The notes below the pieces were generated by a model. The model saw nothing but the letters and a program-made list of their open reading frames with translations. It made no database searches and had not been told where the DNA came from. From an uncultured Holophagales bacterium (GTDB taxonomy: Bacteria > Acidobacteriota > Thermoanaerobaculia > Multivoradales > UBA5704), in NCBI GenBank assembly GCA_963842525.1, contig CAWJGT010000012.1, positions 32,001 to 96,000 on the forward strand: a stretch of DNA of 64,000 nucleotides. Reading direction: 5' to 3'. Of the stretch, positions 42,818-57,359 are shown in pieces. Position 1 is the first letter of the stretch, and every line of letters begins with the position of its first letter. Made by a program: the position numbers and the translations under genes.

Positions 42818-43180
42818 TCACTCCGACTCGGAGCCCTTGCTCGCGGTGGAGGCGGCCTCTTTCTTGGTGTCCGACTTGGATTCGGTCTTGGATTCGGTCT
42901 TGGTGTCCGATTTGGATTCCGACTTGGATTCCGCAGCTCCCTCGCCCTTTTCGCTCTTTTCGCTCTTCTCGTCCTTGTCGGACTTTTCGTGCTTCCCACC
43001 CTTGGCGGCGTAGTCGGTCGCGTACCAGCCGGTCCCCTTGAACTGGAACGCCGGGGCCGAGAACATCTTCTTGACCTCGCCGCCGCAGGCGGGGCAGGCG
43101 GCGAGCGGCGGATCATCCATGCGCTGGATAAGCTCCGTCCTTTTGCCGCAACTGCGGCACTCGTACTCGTAGATCGGCAT
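42818..43180 (-). CDS. FmdB-family zinc-ribbon protein with K/E/S low-complexity tail
   Basis: MPIYEYECRSC..CPACGG..FKGTGWYATDY. Confidence 0.92.
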   Translation of the reverse strand: MPIYEYECRSCGKRTELIQRMDDPPLAACPACGGEVKKMFSAPAFQFKGTGWYATDYAAKGGKHEKSDKDEKSEKSEKGEGAAESKSESKSDTKTESKTESKSDTKKEAASTASKGSESE

Positions 43181-49665: not shown

Positions 49666-50454
49666 CTATTCCTGGGCGTCCTTGACCAGCAGGCGCTCGA
49701 TGCCGCGCGCCTTGCCGGTGTCCTCGTCGATGTCGATGACGACACCGGCAAGGCGGACGTCCCTCTTGGCCACCTCGAAAGAGGAGGGGGTCTGGAGGAG
49801 GAAGCGCTTGAGGACCTTGTCGACCCGCATGCCGATGACCGACTCGTAGGGGCCGGTCATGCCGGCGTCGGTCAGGTAGGCCGTGCCGTTGGGCAGGATG
49901 CGCTCGTCGGCCGTGGGCACGTGGGTGTGGGTGCCGACCACGGCGCTCACCCGGCCGTCCAGGTAGAAACCCAGGGCCTGCTTCTCGCTCGTGGCCTCGG
50001 CGTGGAAGTCGACGAAGACCACCTTGGCCTTCGCTCCGATCTGCTGGAGCAGCCGGTCGGCCACCCGGAAGGGGGACTCGAGGTTGCTCATGAAGACCTG
50101 GCCTTCGAGGTTGATCACCGCCACCGGGATGCCGGCCGCGGTCTCGCCGATGTAGAGCCCCTTCCCCGCGTTGCCCTCGGGATAGTTGGCCGGCCGCAGG
50201 AGGCGCGGATCGCGGTCCAGGATCTCGACCCCCTCCTTCTTGTCCCAGACGTGGTTGCCTGAGGTGAAGCAGTGGATGGGCAGGTCCGCGATCTCCGCCA
50301 TCACCTCCGGGGTGACGCCGAAGCCGCCGGCGGAGTTCTCGACGTTGACCACCACGAAGTCGGCGTTGTGACGGTCCACCAGCCGGGGGAGGAGGTTCTG
50401 CAGGGCCCGGCGGCCCGGCTTGCCGATGACGTCGCCGACGAAGAGGAGCTTCAT
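49666..50454 (-). CDS. ymdB: TIGR00282-family metallophosphoesterase
   Basis: [31 protein letters not shown]. Confidence 0.93.
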
Positions 50455-50471
50455 CGATCCGTCTCTAGCTT

Positions 50472-52039
50472 CTAGCGGGCGTACTCGACGGATCGGGTCT
50501 CGCGGATCACGGTCACCTTGATCTGGCCCGGGTAGGTCAGCTCCTGCTCGATCTTGCGCGCGATGTCCTTGCGACAGCCAGAGGGCCTGCTCGTCGCCGA
50601 TCTTGCCGCTGTCGACGATGATGCGGATCTCGCGGCCGGCCTGGATGGCGAAGGTCTTCTGCACCCCTTTGAAGGCGCCGGCGATCTCCTCGAGCTTCTC
50701 CAGGCGCTTGACGTAGGTCTCGAGCACCTCGCGCCGGGCGCCGGGCCGGGCGGCGGAGAGGGCGTCGGCGGCGGTGACCAGCACGGCCTCGACGGTCTGC
50801 GGGTCGTAGTCGCCGTGGTGGCAGGCCATGGCGTGGACGACCTCCTCGGTCTCGCCGAATTTGCGCAGCAGGTCGATGCCGATCTGCAGGTGGGTGCCGT
50901 CCATCTCGCGGTCGATCGCCTTGCCGATGTCGTGCACCAGGCCGGCGCGGCGGGCGACCTGCGACGTTGACCTTGAGCTCGGCGGCCATGGTGCCGGCGA
51001 GGAAGGCGACCTCCTTGCTGTGATGGAGGACGTTCTGGCCGTAGGAGGTGCGGTAGCGGAGCCGGCCGAGGAGCTTGACCAGCTCGGGGTGCATGCCGGG
51101 GATGCCCAGCTCCAGCAGCGCCGCCTCCCCTTCCTGCAGGATCTTCTGCTCGAACTCGGCCTTGACCTTCTCGACGATCTCCTCGATGCGCGCCGGGTGG
51201 ATGCGGCCGTCGACGATCAGCCGTTCGAGCGCGACCCGGGCCACCTCGCGGCGGAACGGGTCGAAGCCGGAGAGGATGACCGCCTCGGGCGTGTCGTCGA
51301 CGATCAGGTCGACGCCGGTGGCCATCTCCAGGGCGCGGATGTTGCGGCCCTCGCGGCCGATGATCCGCCCCTTCATCTCGTCGTTGGGAAGCATGACGAC
51401 CGAGACGGTGGTCTCGGAGACGTAGTCGGAGGCCGACCGCTGGACCGCCATGCCGATGATCCGCTGCGCCTGCCTGGTGGCCTGCTCGCGGGCCTCGTCC
51501 TCGATCCGCTTGACGATGTGGGCCGCCTCGATCTTGGCCTCGTCCTCCATGACGCGGACCAGCTCGTCGCGCGCCTGCTGGGCGGTGAGGCCGGCGATCT
51601 GCTCGAGACGGCCGCGCTCCTCCTCCACCATCCGGTCGAGGTCGCCTTCCTTCTTTTCGAGGGTCTTCTCGCGGCCGGCCAGGGAGCGGTCGAGCTGGTT
51701 GAGCTCCTTCTCCCGCTTGGCCTGCTCGTCGGTCTTCTTGTCGAGGTTGTCTTCCTTCTGGGTGAGGCGCCGCTCGAGGGCCTCCAGCTCGGTGCGCCGC
51801 TTGCGCGACGCCGACTCGAATTCGCTGCGGGCCTGGAGGAGCTTCTCCTTGGCGGCCACGTCGGCTTCGCGCAGACGGGTCTCGCTCTGCCGCCGCGCGT
51901 CTTCGAGGACGCCGTCGGATTCGCGCTGCGCCTGGGCGAGGATGCGCTTCGCCTCCCGGCGGATCCCGAACCACCAGATCAGGAGGAAGATCACGCCCAC
52001 GGCAAATGCCGTAGCAAGAATGATGATTTCGGTAGTCAA
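50472..52039 (-). CDS. rny: Ribonuclease Y (frameshifts ~50960 and ~50572)
   Basis: N-terminal TM, coiled coil, [15 protein letters not shown] domain, HDIGK HD motif, [12 protein letters not shown]. Confidence 0.95.
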
Positions 52040-52103
52040 CGTTGCCCCCTGCTCTCGCGAGTAGGGGGGGTCAGGGTCGAGACGGGAGAGCTTTCGATAA
52101 AAA

Positions 52104-52291
52104 CATCCCCCGCACGGCCGTGAGGGCCCGAGCGTTTAGAACCTGAAACGCACCAGGTGGGTGTCCGCTCCACGAGCCGTTAGCGTCCTCGTCGATGCGA
52201 GGCTGGCACGGGCCACGCGGGTAAAAGACTCCCTGGGTATAAATGTTGGTTCTAGTATCGTGGTACCCATCACGCACCGCACAGGGGATGC
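52104..52291 (-). ncRNA. ssrS: 6S RNA
   Basis: Closing stem CATCCCC/GGGGATG, internal GAACC/GGTTC pairing, central A/U-rich bulge and CACCCACCTG motif; canonical position between zapA and rny. Confidence 0.85.
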
Positions 52292-52731: not shown

Positions 52732-53801
52732 ATGCCACTCCCGGGCTACCCCGCCCTCCGCAAGCTGCTCTTCCGCCTCGACCCCGAAGCGAGCCACGGC
52801 CTCGGGATCGGAGCCCTCCGCGCTCTCCAGTCCGTGCCCTCTTTGGCCCGGGCGGTGGAGCGCAGGTATCGGATCGACGCGGCGCCGCTGCGGCAGACCC
52901 TTTTCGGCCGGGTCTTCCCGAACCCGGTCGGCCTCGCCGCGGGGTTCGACAAGGACGCGGTCGCCGTCCGCGGCCTGGCGGCGCTCGGCTTCGGCTTCGT
53001 CGAGGTCGGGACCGTCACCCCCCGGCCCCAGGCCGGCAACCCGCGCCCGCGGCTGTTCCGCCTGCCGGAGGCCGGCGAGCCTCCAGAACGCCCTCGGCTT
53101 CAACAACGCCGGCATGGAGGCCGCCCGCCGCCGCCTGGAGACGGCTCTATCCGGCTCCGGTCCCCCTCGGGGTGAACGTCGGCAAGAACAAGGCGACGCC
53201 CCCGGAGGAGGCGCTCGGCGACTATGAGATTCTGATCCGGACGCTCGAGCCGTTCTGCGACTACCTGGTGGTGAACCTCTCCTCGCCGAACACCCCGGGC
53301 CTGCGCGACCTCCAGAACGAGACCTTCGTACGCGCTCTGCTGGCCGCGGCCTCCGGTCTCACGCGTAAGCCGGTCCTGGTCAAGATCGCTCCGGACCTTG
53401 ATCCTGACGCTGCCGCCACCCTGGCCGAGGTGGCGGTCGAAGCGGGCGCCGCCGGGATCGTGGCCACCAACACGACCAACGACTACTCTCTCCTGCCCGG
53501 GGTGAGGGATTTCGGCGGCTTGTCCGGCAAGGTGCTGCGGGAGAAGAGCTTCCGGGTGTTCGAAGCCGTAGCCCGACGCCTCTTCGGCCGCGCCGTGCTC
53601 ATCAGCGTCGGAGGGATCGACTCCGGGGCCGAGGCCTACCGGAGGATTCGAGCCGGCGCCTCCCTGGTGCAGGTCTACACCGCGCTGGTCTACCAGGGGC
53701 CGTCGCTCGCCCGCCGGATCAACGAGGAGCTGCTGGCGCTGATGGAGCGGGACGGGGTGAAGGAGATCGGGGAGGCGGTGGGGGCGGACGTCACTCCCTA
53801 G
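52732..53801 (+). CDS. pyrD: Quinone-dependent dihydroorotate dehydrogenase (frameshifts ~53075-53160)
   Basis: [51 protein letters not shown]. Confidence 0.92.
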
Positions 53802-53803
53802 CC

Positions 53804-53853
53804 GCCCGGGCATGAATGCCCGGGCTAGGAACGGCGCCGGGTAAACCCGGCTT
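53804..53853. repeat. REP-like double hairpin after pyrD
   Basis: GCCCGGGCAT-GA-ATGCCCGGGC followed by GCCGGGT-AA-ACCCGGC. Confidence 0.6.
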
Positions 53854-54273
53854 CAAAGCCCCAGTCATGGGGCGCCGACGGAGTAAGAAGGCCGAGCAGG
53901 GATGCCGGCGCTCCCAGGCCCACGCCCCGCCCCAAGGACGATCCCACCGTACTGATCTGGGCAATTCGGACTGTCGCCTCTCCAGGCCCTTGATTCTACG
54001 CTACTTAACTCCTGCTCGGCCGTTACCCCCCTTTCTGGCCTGTGCGGAAGTCCTCCCGGGAGTCGTTTTTCAGCTTCGTTCACGCTTGTAACTCTCGTCT
54101 TTTCAGTGAATTGAGCTCTCCGCCGTTACCCCGCTGACAAAACGCCATTTTTGAGCTGGCATGATTTGTGACCGGCACGATTCTTTCCTGGCTGGACGGG
54201 TTGTCAAAGAGCGCGTCTCACCTGCTGTCTACTTCGACACGGTCCGCCGGAGATCTGTTGGACGCGGTTTCTT

Positions 54274-54330
54274 CCCTGGGAGCGCCGGCATCCTCGCGTC
54301 TGAGCCGGCGGGACGCCAGCGTTCCCAGGG
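54274..54330. repeat. REP-like palindrome of a second family; half copy at ~53895-53918
   Basis: CCCTGGGAGCGCCGGCATCC...GGACGCCAGCGTTCCCAGGG; GGGATGCCGGCGCTCCCAGG near 53900. Confidence 0.65.
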
Positions 54331-54340
54331 CCCACGTCCC

Positions 54341-54991
54341 CGTCGCAACATGTCCATCACCCGTCGCAGAGCGTAGAGACACTGTCGCAGTGTAAAGTGT
54401 CGAGCCCGTCGCATCGCGGCGCTTTGTCGCATCGCATTGGGCACTGTTACAGCGTAAGCTCACGCTGTCGCAGAGGATGGATGCTCTGCGACAGCGTGAG
54501 CTTACACTGTCGCAGAGGCAGCTTACGCTGCGACTGCGGAGCTTGCACTGTCGCACGGTCTTGCGAGCCCCGGACGATGCCTCCTCACTCCGGCACAATG
54601 CAGCCAGACAATGTCGCACATGCTTCCAGTCATGTTGCAGAGTGTTGCCGCATCGTCGCGCAGTCTCCAGGCGCTGTCGCGGAATGCTGCTACGCTGTAG
54701 CGGCGTCGCCTGATCTGTTTCAGCGTGGGGTACACCTGTTGCATCGTCCAGGAGCGTTGCCGCAGGTCTCGTTGGCAAGGGGTCGCCGCGAGCCGGCACT
54801 ACGTAAATGCCTGGTGCGTTGCGACAGCGTCGAGGGGCAACGGGCCGGTGTCGCTCCGCCCGATTCAACGGCAAGCTGACACTGTCGCAGCGTCAGCATA
54901 CCTGCGACAGAGCAAGCGTGCAGGGGGTGCGGTTCGGCTTGGTTGCGACACCGCAGATCGCTTCAGGAGAAAGCTGCGTGACGTTGCGACA
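54341..54991. repeat. Non-coding array of TGTCGCA/TGCGACA heptamers with 20-21-bp period
   Basis: Motif or near-motif starts at 54341, 362, 383, 425, 445, 466, 487, 508, 529, 549, 612, 633, 654, 675, 696, 716, 737, 758, 820, 883, 903, 944, 985. Confidence 0.85.
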
Positions 54992-55014
54992 GCCTCCGGA
55001 GAGACGAGATGAGG

Positions 55015-55284
55015 CTACTCCAGCAGCCCTCCCAGGTGCTCGACCAGCCGCTCGACCCGGCCGCGGATCTCCTGGCGCTCCTCGACCCAGCGCTGGGCCT
55101 CGCCGGGGGAGGCCGCGGCGGCGAGGCGCTCTTCCAGCTCCTCGATCCGCCGGTGGAGCGCAGTGTTCTCGCTCCGCAGCTCGCGGAGGCGTTCGCCCGC
55201 GGCGCGGACCTTCTCCTCCAGCACGGTCATCCATTCGGTGCCGGTGTCCGCCATGGGCGGCTCGGCGGTTGCAGTCTTGGCCAT
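55015..55284 (-). CDS. ZapB-like coiled-coil protein
   Basis: LEEKV..LRELRSEN..EERQEIRGRVERL; TGATG-coupled to pheT. Confidence 0.7.
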   Translation of the reverse strand: MAKTATAEPPMADTGTEWMTVLEEKVRAAGERLRELRSENTALHRRIEELEERLAAAASPGEAQRWVEERQEIRGRVERLVEHLGGLLE

Positions 55285-57359
55285 CAGGACCTCCATCCGA
55301 AGCGGCGCTCGAGCTCCGCCGTCAGGGTGCTCTGGCGCTCGTTGACCTCGTCCTGGGTCAGGGAGCGCTCCGGCGAGTTGTAGAGGAATGAGATCGTCGT
55401 GTTCACCGCCCCCTCGGGCACGCCCTGGCCCTGGTAGCGGACCTTGAGCCCGTACCAGACGAGGTCGGCCGGCCGCAGCCCGGCGATCACCCGGTCGATG
55501 TCCACCCAGGGGGTGGCGAGCGCGTGCGTCAGGGTGAAGTCGGCGTCGATGGCCGGGTGGCGCGAGGGGATCTCCACGGCCAGGCTCTGCTCGCCGCCCG
55601 TCAGGCCATCCAGGGCGACCTCGGCGACATAGAGAGGGTAGCCCTCGTCCTCCTCGACCCGACCCAGATAGCCGATCACCTGGCTGTCCGCCGAGGTCCG
55701 GTCCGGCCGGAACAGCTCGGCCGTGTTGCCGGCGAGCAGCCCTTTGAGCTCGGCAGGCCGTGCCTCCAGAGGCACCCCGAGCGCCTCGGCCAGGCCCTCG
55801 ACGGCGCCCTTCAGGTCGAAGAAGTCGAGCTCCACCTCCCGCTGCCAGGGGTTGCCCACCGTGCCGCCGCAGACCAGGCCCAGGACCTCGGGCTCGTCCG
55901 CCGGGTCGGGGGTTCCCTTGTAGAAGACGCTGCCGATCTCGAACAGCCGCACCGCGGGGAGACCCCGCCGCTGGTTGAACCGGGCGGTCTCCACGAGGTT
56001 GGGCAGGAGCGACCGGCGCAGCACCGCGTAGGCCTCGGAGAGCGGGTTGGCGAGCGCCACCGGCTCGGCAGGGGGGAGCAGGCTGTGGAAGCGCGCGTCC
56101 TGCGCCCGGCTCTGGAAGACGAAGTGGACCGCCTCGGCGTAGCCGGCCGCCGCCAGGTACCCGCGGACGCGGTCGCGCAGGCGCTGCCGCGGCGTCCGCG
56201 GGCCGTCCGAGCCCATCAGGCTCGGCAGGGTCGACGGGATGCCGTCCAGCCCGTGGATGCGCAGGACCTCCTCGAAGAGGTCGGCCTCGTAGGCGCTGCC
56301 GTCCGGCCGCGGCTGGAAGTCGAAGAGGCGCCAGGAAGGGACCGTCACGTTCCATAGACCGTCGCCGGTGCTCTCCAGCCTGAAGCCGAGCCCGGTCAGC
56401 CAGCGCTCGGCGTCGGCCGCGCGGATCTCGATCCCGGCGAAGGCGTTCAGCCGGGCAAGGTCCAGGCGACCCCCGAGAGGCTTGGGGAAACCTTCCCGCC
56501 GCTCGTCGATCGCTCCGGCGAGGACCGTCCCACCTGCGGCCTGCGCGATCAGCAGGGCCGCCCGGCTGGCCGCCTCCAGGCAGGCTTCGGGGTCGGCCCC
56601 CCGTTCGAAGCGGTGGCTTGCGTCGGTGTGCATGCCGAGCCCGCGCGCCGTGAGGCGTACCTGCTTGCGGTCGAAGTGCGCGCTCTCGAGCAGGATGTCG
56701 GTCGTCGCGTCCGTGACCTCGCTGTCGGCGCCGCCCATGACGCCGGCGAGGCCCACCGGCCGCTCGGCGTCGGCGATGACCAGCATGCCGGGAGCGAGCT
56801 TGCGCTCGACGCCGTCGAGGGTGGTCAGAGCCTCGCCCTCGCGCGCAGGCCGCACCACGATCTTCGCGCCGGCCAGCTTCGCGAGGTCGAAGGCGTGGAG
56901 CGGCTGGCCCATCTCCCAGAGGACGAAGTTGGTGACGTCCACCACGTTGTTGATCGACCGCAGGCCGATGGATTCGAGGCGCTTGCGCAGCCAGTCCGGG
57001 CTCGGGCCGATCCTGACGCCGCGGACGACCCGGGCCACGTACCGCGGGCAGCCCTCGTCGTCCTCGACCTCGACGCTTGCGGCGTCCTGGCTGCGCTCCG
57101 TGCGCTTCGGGCGGGGCGCCGTCGGGCCGAGGGGCCGGCGCAGCGGCCGGTCGTAGAGGACCGCCGCCTCCCGCGCCAGGCCGAGATGGTTCATGGCATC
57201 GGGCCGGTTGGTGGTGACCTCGACGTCGAAGACGGCGTCGCCGTCCCGCTCCTCGATGCTGTCGGTGTTGAGCCCGGCGGCGGTCAGCCGCCGGGCCAGC
57301 TCCTTGGGATCGGCCGGGAGGTCGACGTACTCGGCGAGCCAGCTCCGGGAGAACAGCAT
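55284..57359 (-). CDS. pheT: Phenylalanine-tRNA ligase beta subunit (short form without the OB tRNA-binding domain)
   Basis: WLAEYVD, TNRPD, INNVVDVTN, GQPLHAFD, ASHRFERG, LFEEVLR, C-terminal anticodon-binding domain. Confidence 0.95.
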   Translation of the reverse strand: MLFSRSWLAEYVDLPADPKELARRLTAAGLNTDSIEERDGDAVFDVEVTTNRPDAMNHLGLAREAAVLYDRPLRRPLGPTAPRPKRTERSQDAASVEVEDDEGCPRYVARVVRGVRIGPSPDWLRKRLESIGLRSINNVVDVTNFVLWEMGQPLHAFDLAKLAGAKIVVRPAREGEALTTLDGVERKLAPGMLVIADAERPVGLAGVMGGADSEVTDATTDILLESAHFDRKQVRLTARGLGMHTDASHRFERGADPEACLEAASRAALLIAQAAGGTVLAGAIDERREGFPKPLGGRLDLARLNAFAGIEIRAADAERWLTGLGFRLESTGDGLWNVTVPSWRLFDFQPRPDGSAYEADLFEEVLRIHGLDGIPSTLPSLMGSDGPRTPRQRLRDRVRGYLAAAGYAEAVHFVFQSRAQDARFHSLLPPAEPVALANPLSEAYAVLRRSLLPNLVETARFNQRRGLPAVRLFEIGSVFYKGTPDPADEPEVLGLVCGGTVGNPWQREVELDFFDLKGAVEGLAEALGVPLEARPAELKGLLAGNTAELFRPDRTSADSQVIGYLGRVEEDEGYPLYVAEVALDGLTGGEQSLAVEIPSRHPAIDADFTLTHALATPWVDIDRVIAGLRPADLVWYGLKVRYQGQGVPEGAVNTTISFLYNSPERSLTQDEVNERQSTLTAELERRFGWRS

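Follow-up and report, generated by a model that had tools for sequence, protein, structure and literature searches.

Plasmid iterons with their Rep proteins and the repeats of partition centromeres (parC/ParR, tubC/TubR, pSK1 par, StbA) are short sequences, spaced by ~11–22 bp, that lie beside the gene of their binding protein; the latter is often a winged-helix protein, and the complex takes the form of a filament or a wrap on one face of the DNA. KfrA of plasmid RA3 is reported to combine a small domain for DNA binding with an alpha-helical part through which it self-associates; its gene is monocistronic, and the operator upstream of it, composed of short repeats in both orientations, owes its strength to repeat number, not orientation (PMC7783346). 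Here, we analyse a non-coding array in which a 7-nt core recurs on a ~20.8-bp lattice, along with a family of small, unannotated genes ("gene X") that adjoin related arrays. The array lies in a 64,000-nt stretch (referred to as the window) of the genome of an uncultured Holophagales bacterium (assembly GCA_963842525.1, contig CAWJGT010000012.1, positions 32,001–96,000), which measures 9.95 Mb in 34 contigs (cited as C1, C3 and so on) and is 96% complete. While arrays bound by a neighbouring gene's product are already known from plasmids in the form of iterons, centromeres and the KfrA operator, the differences here are the chromosomal setting, the larger scale (20–32 sites per array), class-specific cores and periods, and the many arrays that lack a gene.

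54341..54991, no strand assigned: phased array of 32 lattice nodes with a 20.785-bp step; core TGTCGCA (extended CTGTCGCAG) in both orientations

The window contains 19 exact copies of TGTCGCA or its reverse complement TGCGACA, 12 of them within 54383–54991; 100 dinucleotide shuffles of the window yielded a mean of 6.95 exact sites (maximum 14), and none reached 19. Allowing one mismatch, 22 sites were found between 54300 and 55010. At a period of 20.8 bp, Rayleigh's R amounted to 0.989 for the 12 exact sites and to 0.816 for the 22 sites; 2000 random placements, with the best period between 5 and 60 bp chosen for each, averaged 0.507 and peaked at 0.705. Base autocorrelation of the array peaked at lags 21, 42 and 63, and a least-squares lattice fitted a period of 20.785 bp with residuals of at most 1.0 bp across 602 bp. 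Exact cores occupy 12 of the 32 nodes, rising to 19 with up to one and 24 with up to two mismatches, as opposed to 0, 1 and 6 of 31 nodes, respectively, for a control lattice offset by half a period. These data bear out an earlier note on this stretch, made from its letters, which had claimed at least 23 copies or near-copies at a 20–21-bp periodicity, a count in agreement with the 24 nodes that have up to two mismatches.

The consensus of the window array reads aC.CT GTCGCA gcG, with sites mostly on the plus strand in its left half and mostly on the minus strand in its right half. Degeneration is strongest in the middle (54560–54800), and Tandem Repeats Finder detects only the freshest part (54449–54555, periods 21 and 42). 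The intervening sequences are indeed variable, as previously stated, but not unrelated: several share an AGCTYAC sub-motif (families D3 and D4) and hence appear to be degraded versions of a single 21-bp unit. G+C content stays at 0.61–0.65 across the array, without any A+T-rich stretch.

The window array is non-coding, as the earlier note had proposed. Whichever of the six frames is read, first, second and third codon positions all have a G+C content of 0.62, compared to third-position values of 0.78–0.92 in four neighbouring genes. Long open frames cross the region, with a length of 218 aa on the minus strand and 160 aa on the plus strand; open frames across the array matched no Pfam family at E ≤ 0.01, and alignment to a paralogous array on C34 revealed indels of 1, 2 and 8 nt. 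Searching the window against Rfam at gathering thresholds returned only two tRNAs and a 6S RNA, and a permissive scan of 53750–55050 only sub-threshold, hairpin-like matches (36.7 bits vs. a gathering score of 68). The 6S RNA (RF00013, 73 bits) maps to 52103–52290 on the minus strand, directly downstream of zapA.

Genome-wide, exact TGTCGCA/TGCGACA sites number 838, compared to ~1080 expected when scaled from the window shuffles; ten clusters of them fall into eight loci. Within these loci, exact sites are separated by 20–22 bp (n = 17), 40–42 bp (n = 15), 62–63 bp (n = 14) or 82–84 bp (n = 7), with further distances being multiples of ~20.8 bp up to 208 bp and only five off the lattice. The whole of the window array has a paralog at the C34 locus (68% identity over 664 columns), and each of the two retains 12–14 exact heptamers at lattice positions. 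Identity between them is higher in the cores than in the remainder (172/224 positions or 77%, vs. 259/428 or 61%; Fisher p = 2.8e-5), and the largest indel is exactly 21 nt, i.e. one period. The window consensus equals that of the arrays at C9:1898k (beside an intact gene X), C3:355k, C3:1116k and C34, and differs from the AATGTCGCAAT and AGTCGCAA subclasses. Similarly phased arrays exist elsewhere in the genome and likewise in relatives. There, BLAST of the array against 40 genomes matched only a palindromic repeat at 54300–54333 and not the array itself, and counterparts were sought by a degenerate spaced pattern, TGYSRCA; this was found in 13 of 60 further family genomes, namely 13 of 40 that encode gene X and 0 of 20 that do not, counts to which genera do not contribute independently.

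Periods differ between array classes. Ten GTCGCA-type arrays have periods of 20.62–21.00 bp, GCCGCA-type arrays of 20.14–20.34 bp and CACCGC-type arrays of ~19.7 bp, with 16 of 24 fitted arrays exceeding all 300 random placements. The earlier note's helical phasing at two turns holds for the class of the window array; its sister classes have other periods. Orientation varies, too: in the C9:477k array, sites are nearly all direct (+++-++++), and the relative G020 carries arrays of near-identical 20-bp units, all direct, at eight or more loci, some of which share ~200 bp of flank. Two further arrays of this genome (C9:107801–108501 and C1:320701–321451) consist of 20-bp units, TAAGCTTATCCACCGCGACA, and lie upstream of two gene X paralogs; their core TTATCCAC, repeated 14–18 times, resembles the consensus of a DnaA box.

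A scan of base autocorrelation that makes no use of the motif, run over 300-bp segments with lags of 20 and 21, called 353 periodic stretches in the genome, ~248 outside likely genes and 73 mostly inside likely genes; some of the other 21-bp arrays are coding. Cores unrelated to that of the window array include GAGGTACC, CTTCCGGA, GACCTGCGG, CAAGCTTC and AGCTCCGC, among others; example stretches with other cores are C9:191401–192351, C9:1069651–1070451, C22:16451–17251, C34:675101–675851 and C12:120551–121301. Some unrelated-core arrays adjoin small gene families without a Pfam match, or genes for TPR proteins: of seven proteins sampled beside other-core arrays, one contains TPR repeats, and for the other six no Pfam family was matched.

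Four of the sibling arrays start directly beside a divergently placed gene whose protein begins with MSRSQSVAEW, which we refer to as gene X. A profile search of the genome recovered 14 full-length copies and four broken ones; those at C3:355.5k and C3:1116k are truncated, while the other two (C9:1042.7k and C13:51.7k) carry frameshifts. A 20/21-bp periodic stretch lies within 800 bp upstream of 11 of the 14 full-length copies, compared to 187 of 4371 control genes (4.3%; binomial p = 2.8e-13). In other genomes, all of them titled Thermoanaerobaculia, Thermoanaerobaculaceae or Acidobacteriota, such a stretch was present upstream at 38 of 43 gene X loci and downstream at none of the 40 scorable ones. 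No other conserved neighbouring gene was found across the 43 loci, so that the module comprises the array and the gene. Different paralogs are preceded by different cores, i.e. TGCGACA, TGCCGCA, AGTCGCA, GGCGCAA, CACCGC(A) or GTTGCA. In this genome, intact gene X copies at C9:1898274–1898780 and C30:111741–112244 accompany arrays of the window's extended site.

Gene X encodes a protein of ~170 aa that belongs to an unannotated family. No Pfam family was matched at E ≤ 0.01; at E ≤ 1, seven of 31 members matched DUF3253 (PF11625; best E = 4.3e-7), while the copy nearest the window's array class did not. A word-based homolog search gave 13 matches, three labelled 'hypothetical protein' and the rest unnamed, and among 1.84 billion cluster representatives, 462 were retrieved at E ≤ 1e-3, nearly all of 160–175 aa. 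No description of such arrays or of the gene family was found among the papers that the literature searches listed. An AlphaFold model (mean pLDDT 81) shows a helix (residues 7–72), a disordered linker (68–89) and a winged helix (94–166). According to Foldseek, the latter resembles the DNA-binding domains of Fur, PadR and Rok at E ~3e-3 or weaker; VIA-align superposed it on a Fur domain with Z = 9.6 and a root-mean-square deviation of 3.0 over 71 residues, which supports the general fold only. From an alignment of our own, a homodimer was predicted with an ipSAE of 0.61 (best control 0.01), at least 69% contact agreement between runs and a partner pLDDT of at least 72; in calibration, 20 of 30 solved homomers but only one of 23 single chains attained the same mark. 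In this model, residues 7–60 would pair antiparallel about residue 31. His28 and His35 are invariant and Glu32 is near-invariant (numbering of the L006 copy), all on one face of the helix next to the modelled dyad, where they could form a metal site.

The window array itself has no gene X next to it. It is located in a 1.2-kb gap without a credible gene (53814–55015) between a pyrD-like gene (plus strand, ending at 53801) and a zapB-like gene (minus strand, 55015–55290; Pfam ZapB, 2e-8), behind which follow pheT and pheS. The gap contains the following elements besides the array:

53800..53877, no strand assigned: 76-nt dispersed palindromic repeat that immediately follows the stop codon of the pyrD-like gene and makes up the mosaic's left edge
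53941..54264, minus strand: degenerate solitary CRISPR repeat (53941–53977) with ~250 nt of leader-like sequence; part of the inserted mosaic, not of the array
54274..54330, no strand assigned: two copies of a short dispersed palindromic repeat of the CCTGGGAGCGCCGGC type at the array's distal edge (I3, I5, D7)
54998..55011, plus strand: remnant of a lost gene X, with a GGAGAG ribosome-binding site (N5 spacing) and an ATG at 55009–55011, identified by alignment with the C3 sibling

The remnant came to light when window positions 54878–55013 were aligned (74%) to that end of the C3:355.6k array which lies next to the gene, as far as the gene X start codon; the ATG of the remnant precedes the zapB-like stop codon (55015–55017) by 3 nt (55012–55014). 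Judged by this alignment, the window array is an orphan copy that has lost its gene X, and the C34 paralog breaks off at nearly the same position. The earlier remark that no cognate gene is adjacent was hence literally true but incomplete, as the array ends in the ribosome-binding site and start codon of a lost gene with intact copies elsewhere in the genome.

The gene order rny, zapA, pyrD and convergent zapB is kept in four congeners (G001–G004), where the pyrD/zapB gap measures ~5 bp (G003), ~150 bp (G002) or ~110 bp (G004), or is filled by an unrelated insertion sequence (G001). No TGTCGCA site was found at the pyrD/zapB junction of any of the four, which identifies the 1.2-kb block as an insertion in this genome. 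The G001 insertion sequence (L105, 2796–4440; inverted ends ctaggagcctgtcgg...) further indicates that the junction takes up insertions repeatedly. The inserted block is a mosaic of the 76-nt repeat, the CRISPR repeat with its leader remnant, the palindromic repeats and the array. Many copies of the 76-nt repeat are spread over several contigs, most with 91–97% identity across ~72–78 nt. The CCTGGGAGCGCCGGC-type repeat likewise occurs in many copies in this genome and its relatives, flanks the distal end of the C9:1898k array as well, and in one of its copies at the array edge pairs perfectly with 53900–53918. The leader-like sequence is 72–81% identical to CRISPR leaders on C14, C22 and C3 and holds a promoter-like site running from 54207 to 54180 on the minus strand; neither spacers nor cas genes were found nearby.

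Several observations concern the surroundings. A 2.9-kb element encoding a tyrosine integrase and an IS91-type transposase (Y2_Tnp and Zn_Tnp_IS91) exists in three copies of 98–99% identity (L006 6874–9765, C3:356326–359213 and C25:537196–539904), two of which are inserted where TGTCGCA arrays end distally, beside the palindromic repeat. The window's RNase Y gene (~49666–52039, minus strand) is split into two overlapping frames, a 500-aa frame that ends in a proline/arginine-rich tail and another frame in which the HD-domain part runs on, reflecting a frameshift or a sequencing error; RNase Y of the congeners aligns over only 343–386 of the 500 residues in a single frame. Finally, tandem repeats with periods of 12/24/36 and 9/27 occupy window positions 42862–43004 (Tandem Repeats Finder scores up to 119).

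With somewhat more confidence than doubt, we read the array as a multi-site docking platform on double-stranded DNA that would be bound in trans by dimers of the gene X product. In the complete module, the array lies directly upstream of gene X, and the window copy would be served in trans by the products of the intact genes on C9 and C30. Each winged helix would read one CTGTCGCAG core. By standard helix and B-DNA dimensions, the coiled coil (residues 7–60) would span ~80 Å (1.5 Å per residue), compared to a lattice step of ~71 Å (21 bp × 3.4 Å); as the rod thus approximates one lattice step, dimers would connect adjacent nodes along the same face of the helix and might thereby build a continuous nucleoprotein filament. 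In gene-linked arrays, this filament may autoregulate gene X, whereas in orphan arrays it may serve as a sink or an architectural element. The presence of both site orientations on one lattice fits a reader of duplex DNA and not one of single strands; together with the period of about two helical turns and the linkage to a predicted winged-helix dimer, it points to duplex-DNA recognition. Among the interpretations put forward in the earlier note, a protein-binding platform is the one that fits best. A more far-reaching version, which we hold to be unlikely as it stands, would have Thermoanaerobaculia employ sequence-addressed nucleoprotein filaments: paralogous coiled-coil/winged-helix 'rulers' would each read their own array class, defined by core and period (19.7–21.0 bp), and orphan arrays would be chromosomal nodes that are coated and possibly bridged to arrays of the same class, amounting to a paralog-coded organisation or insulation of the chromosome whose assembly the His28/Glu32/His35 cluster could render metal-dependent.

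One element of the array is better described before the alternatives are weighed:

54454..54505, no strand assigned: inverted repeat (I1) or hairpin of 20 pairs that spans two convergent sites and is kept in the C34 paralog

Between the window array and its C34 paralog, two of the 20 pairs of this hairpin changed on both sides, one went from GC to GU and none was broken, while the loop diverged; the covariation comes from these two sequences only, and homogenisation of the palindrome arms could be an alternative source of the compensatory pattern. Folding z-scores for the array as RNA were –5.0 (plus strand) and –8.6 (minus strand), based on 20 shuffles each. Neither a promoter nor a terminator was seen for a transcript across the window array in a scan that included its gene-proximal end, and no sigma-70-type promoter was detected at this end or in two gene-linked arrays.

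A number of these observations weigh against a platform bound by gene X protein. The hairpin's conservation by two compensatory changes, as judged from the alignment, is not predicted by simple site-by-site binding. Autoregulation would have to operate without a mapped promoter, given the lack of sigma-70-type candidates in the two gene-linked arrays. The contrast between cores and spacers derives from an alignment that is partly anchored by the cores themselves. Association with the gene is, moreover, incomplete: among 27 arrays with gene-X-type cores in this genome, eight lie within 900 bp of a gene X match and 19 do not, and of 14 loci found by pattern (one per genome), only two have gene X within 1.5 kb. 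Core labels on a quickly built gene X tree required 31 changes, compared to a mean of 40.7 upon shuffling, a clustering that is confounded as gene and array duplicate together. Lastly, ~220 non-coding 20/21-bp arrays in the genome have unrelated cores and no gene X, so that some lineage-wide process might generate such arrays whatever binds them, and the near-identical arrays of G020 look, from their sequences, like recent spread instead of old constraint.

An explanation that we consider rather unlikely, and that is itself compatible with binding, is that a selfish or mobile module of array and gene has left the array behind as a decaying relic, functionless at this locus, whose lattice persists through youth or gene conversion. 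This would account for the loss of gene X here, its truncation at two sibling loci and frameshifts at two more, for a block inserted at a junction that is array-free in four congeners and took an insertion sequence in G001, for the variety of module contexts without conserved neighbours, for the dispersed near-identical arrays in G020 and for the degenerate middle of the window array. Against it, the window copy is not young, being 68% identical to its nearest paralog, and yet the two have kept 12–14 exact heptamers each on the lattice; cores outlast spacers, and the single large indel is a whole period. Nor does a transposase or terminal repeat belong to the module, since the IS91-type element found close to two of the siblings is a recent insertion in its own right (98% identical). 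That the motif should instead be a stem element of a structured nucleic acid, be it a hairpin-folded transcript (a regulatory or processed RNA) or DNA hairpins and cruciforms, strikes us as very improbable. The folding z-scores, the 20-pair hairpin with its compensated pairs and diverged loop, and the ability of the whole array to fold back, given its plus-oriented left and minus-oriented right half, speak for such a structure; however, purely direct arrays of the same class in relatives cannot form these hairpins, and neither can the one at C9:477k, while the constant feature of all is a lattice near 2 × 10.4 bp, a property of duplex DNA. The sub-threshold Rfam matches, the two-sequence basis of the covariation and the lack of a promoter or terminator for the array add to this. 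A processed repeat–spacer RNA, which the earlier note had considered, fares no better, as both orientations are used, direct-only arrays in relatives have identical 'spacers' and no guide-type protein is linked.

The array might also be a platform for some other protein or purpose, such as a replication origin with iterons, a partition centromere of an integrated element or the titration of a regulator, with gene X being a mere neighbour; this we regard as quite improbable. Its period and site size match those familiar from plasmid iterons, the sister arrays at C9:107.8k and C1:320.7k carry a DnaA-box-like core in TTATCCAC, and most arrays of the genome have no gene X. Conversely, no Rep, ParA, TubZ or other conserved gene was found beside the arrays, the G+C profile of the window array offers no A+T-rich stretch, the arrays show a specific association with gene X that recurs in other genomes, and exact sites are not enriched outside arrays. 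The centromere and iteron labels of the earlier note are therefore dropped, as neither an NTPase nor a Rep gene is linked. Hardly credible, finally, is a coding heptad-type repeat protein or an assembly artefact. While 21 bp equal seven codons, long open frames cross the array and some 21-bp arrays of this genome do encode protein, the flat composition in all frames, the lack of Pfam matches, the occasional 20-bp steps and the non-triplet indels argue against coding; an artefact is at odds with the position of the array inside a 132.8-kb contig, between conserved genes, and with diverged paralogs in the same genome and counterparts in others.

A single genome thus contains 14 gene X copies, dozens of related-core arrays and ~350 stretches of 20/21-bp periodicity. 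If the proposed binding is true, the system would be a tractable model for how a fixed-span dimer reads helix spacing and for how paralogs diversify their binding specificity, and it would help test whether bacteria use dedicated, dense site arrays as architectural or buffering elements. For annotation, it is relevant that such arrays escape gene callers and, largely, tandem-repeat finders.

Among described repeat arrays, CRISPR was dismissed in the earlier note, correctly so: instead of direct repeats of ~23–50 nt with unique spacers, the window array has a core of 7–9 nt, a period of 20.8 bp and both orientations. In the true CRISPR arrays of this genome, the repeat measures 37 nt and recurs every ~72–85 nt (mostly 73–79), and cas1/cas2-like genes were recognised by eye on C14. 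The leader remnant 150 bp from the window array points away from it and was not found beside the C34 paralog. The 37-nt repeat begins with GTCGCA, the core of the array, which we regard as coincidental, given that what lies beyond the other leaders of this genome are cas genes instead of phased arrays. TIGR arrays are composed of two distinct, alternating repeats of 8–12 nt with 9-nt (9–12-nt) spacers in a ~36-nt unit and are associated with a Nop-domain Tas protein (PMC12045711). The resemblance lies in very short conserved repeats and short variable stretches in a regular array near a small protein gene. As noted before, the TIGR layout does not apply here, where a single core in either orientation recurs at 20.8 bp and 'spacers' are identical in young arrays; Nop domain PF01798 had no match in the genome at E ≤ 0.01 (controls were positive in four archaea), a search to which the Nop domain of Tas may be too divergent. 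REP/BIME elements are clustered, imperfect palindromes of 20–40 nt in genomes that encode a REP-associated tyrosine transposase. Like these elements, the arrays are dispersed, multi-copy and extragenic, alternate partly in orientation, have hairpin potential and occur at convergent gene junctions; unlike these, the conserved unit is only 7–9 nt long and held on a strict lattice, direct-only arrays exist, and the linked gene encodes a winged-helix protein rather than a REP-associated transposase, for which no dedicated search was made.

The plasmid systems come closer. An iteron origin would agree with the period (17–22 bp), but the linked gene has no Rep match and the window copy no gene at all; besides its high G+C content, the window array showed no box of the TTATCCACA type, and cores that resemble DnaA boxes are restricted to sister arrays. 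For a partition centromere of types I–III, a ParA, ParM or TubZ NTPase would be expected, and none figured as a conserved neighbour in the 43 gene X loci. In contrast to iterons and centromeres in general, the modules described here have no Rep family, NTPase partner or A+T-rich unwinding element, reside in the chromosome, and comprise 14 gene copies and dozens of arrays in one genome, the arrays being several times longer. KfrA and pSK1 Par offer the better match: the layout of a DNA-binding domain plus coiled coil, encoded by a monocistronic gene with a repeat operator upstream, is recovered in the complete modules, as far as architecture and the structural model go. KfrA itself has five contiguous 9-bp repeats over one plasmid promoter, whereas here ~20–32 sites lie 20–21 bp apart over 400–650 bp of chromosome; paralogous copies and orphan arrays are many, the domain order is reversed and no sequence relationship was found. 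KfrA/pSK1-Par-like Pfam families were not among the matches listed at E ≤ 1, which covered every family for the first member and the first 25 of 32 families for the 31 members together; WHD_Rok and Rok_N were likewise absent from the families listed for the 31 members. In Rok, a nucleoid-associated protein of Bacillus, a helical N-terminal domain for self-association is followed by a flexible linker and, at the C-terminus, a winged helix, which is also the architecture of the gene X model. The DNA-binding domain of Rok was among the Foldseek matches (5zuz, E = 6.5e-3), and a Rok-like cluster ranked as the second-nearest named cluster in a protein atlas (score 0.85), both of which we take as leads only; to our knowledge, no dedicated phased arrays lie beside the rok gene. 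The module works like the repeat operators, centromeres and iterons of plasmids but falls under the sequence definition of none of these systems; in its logic it comes nearest to KfrA of RA3, and in the architecture of its protein to Rok.

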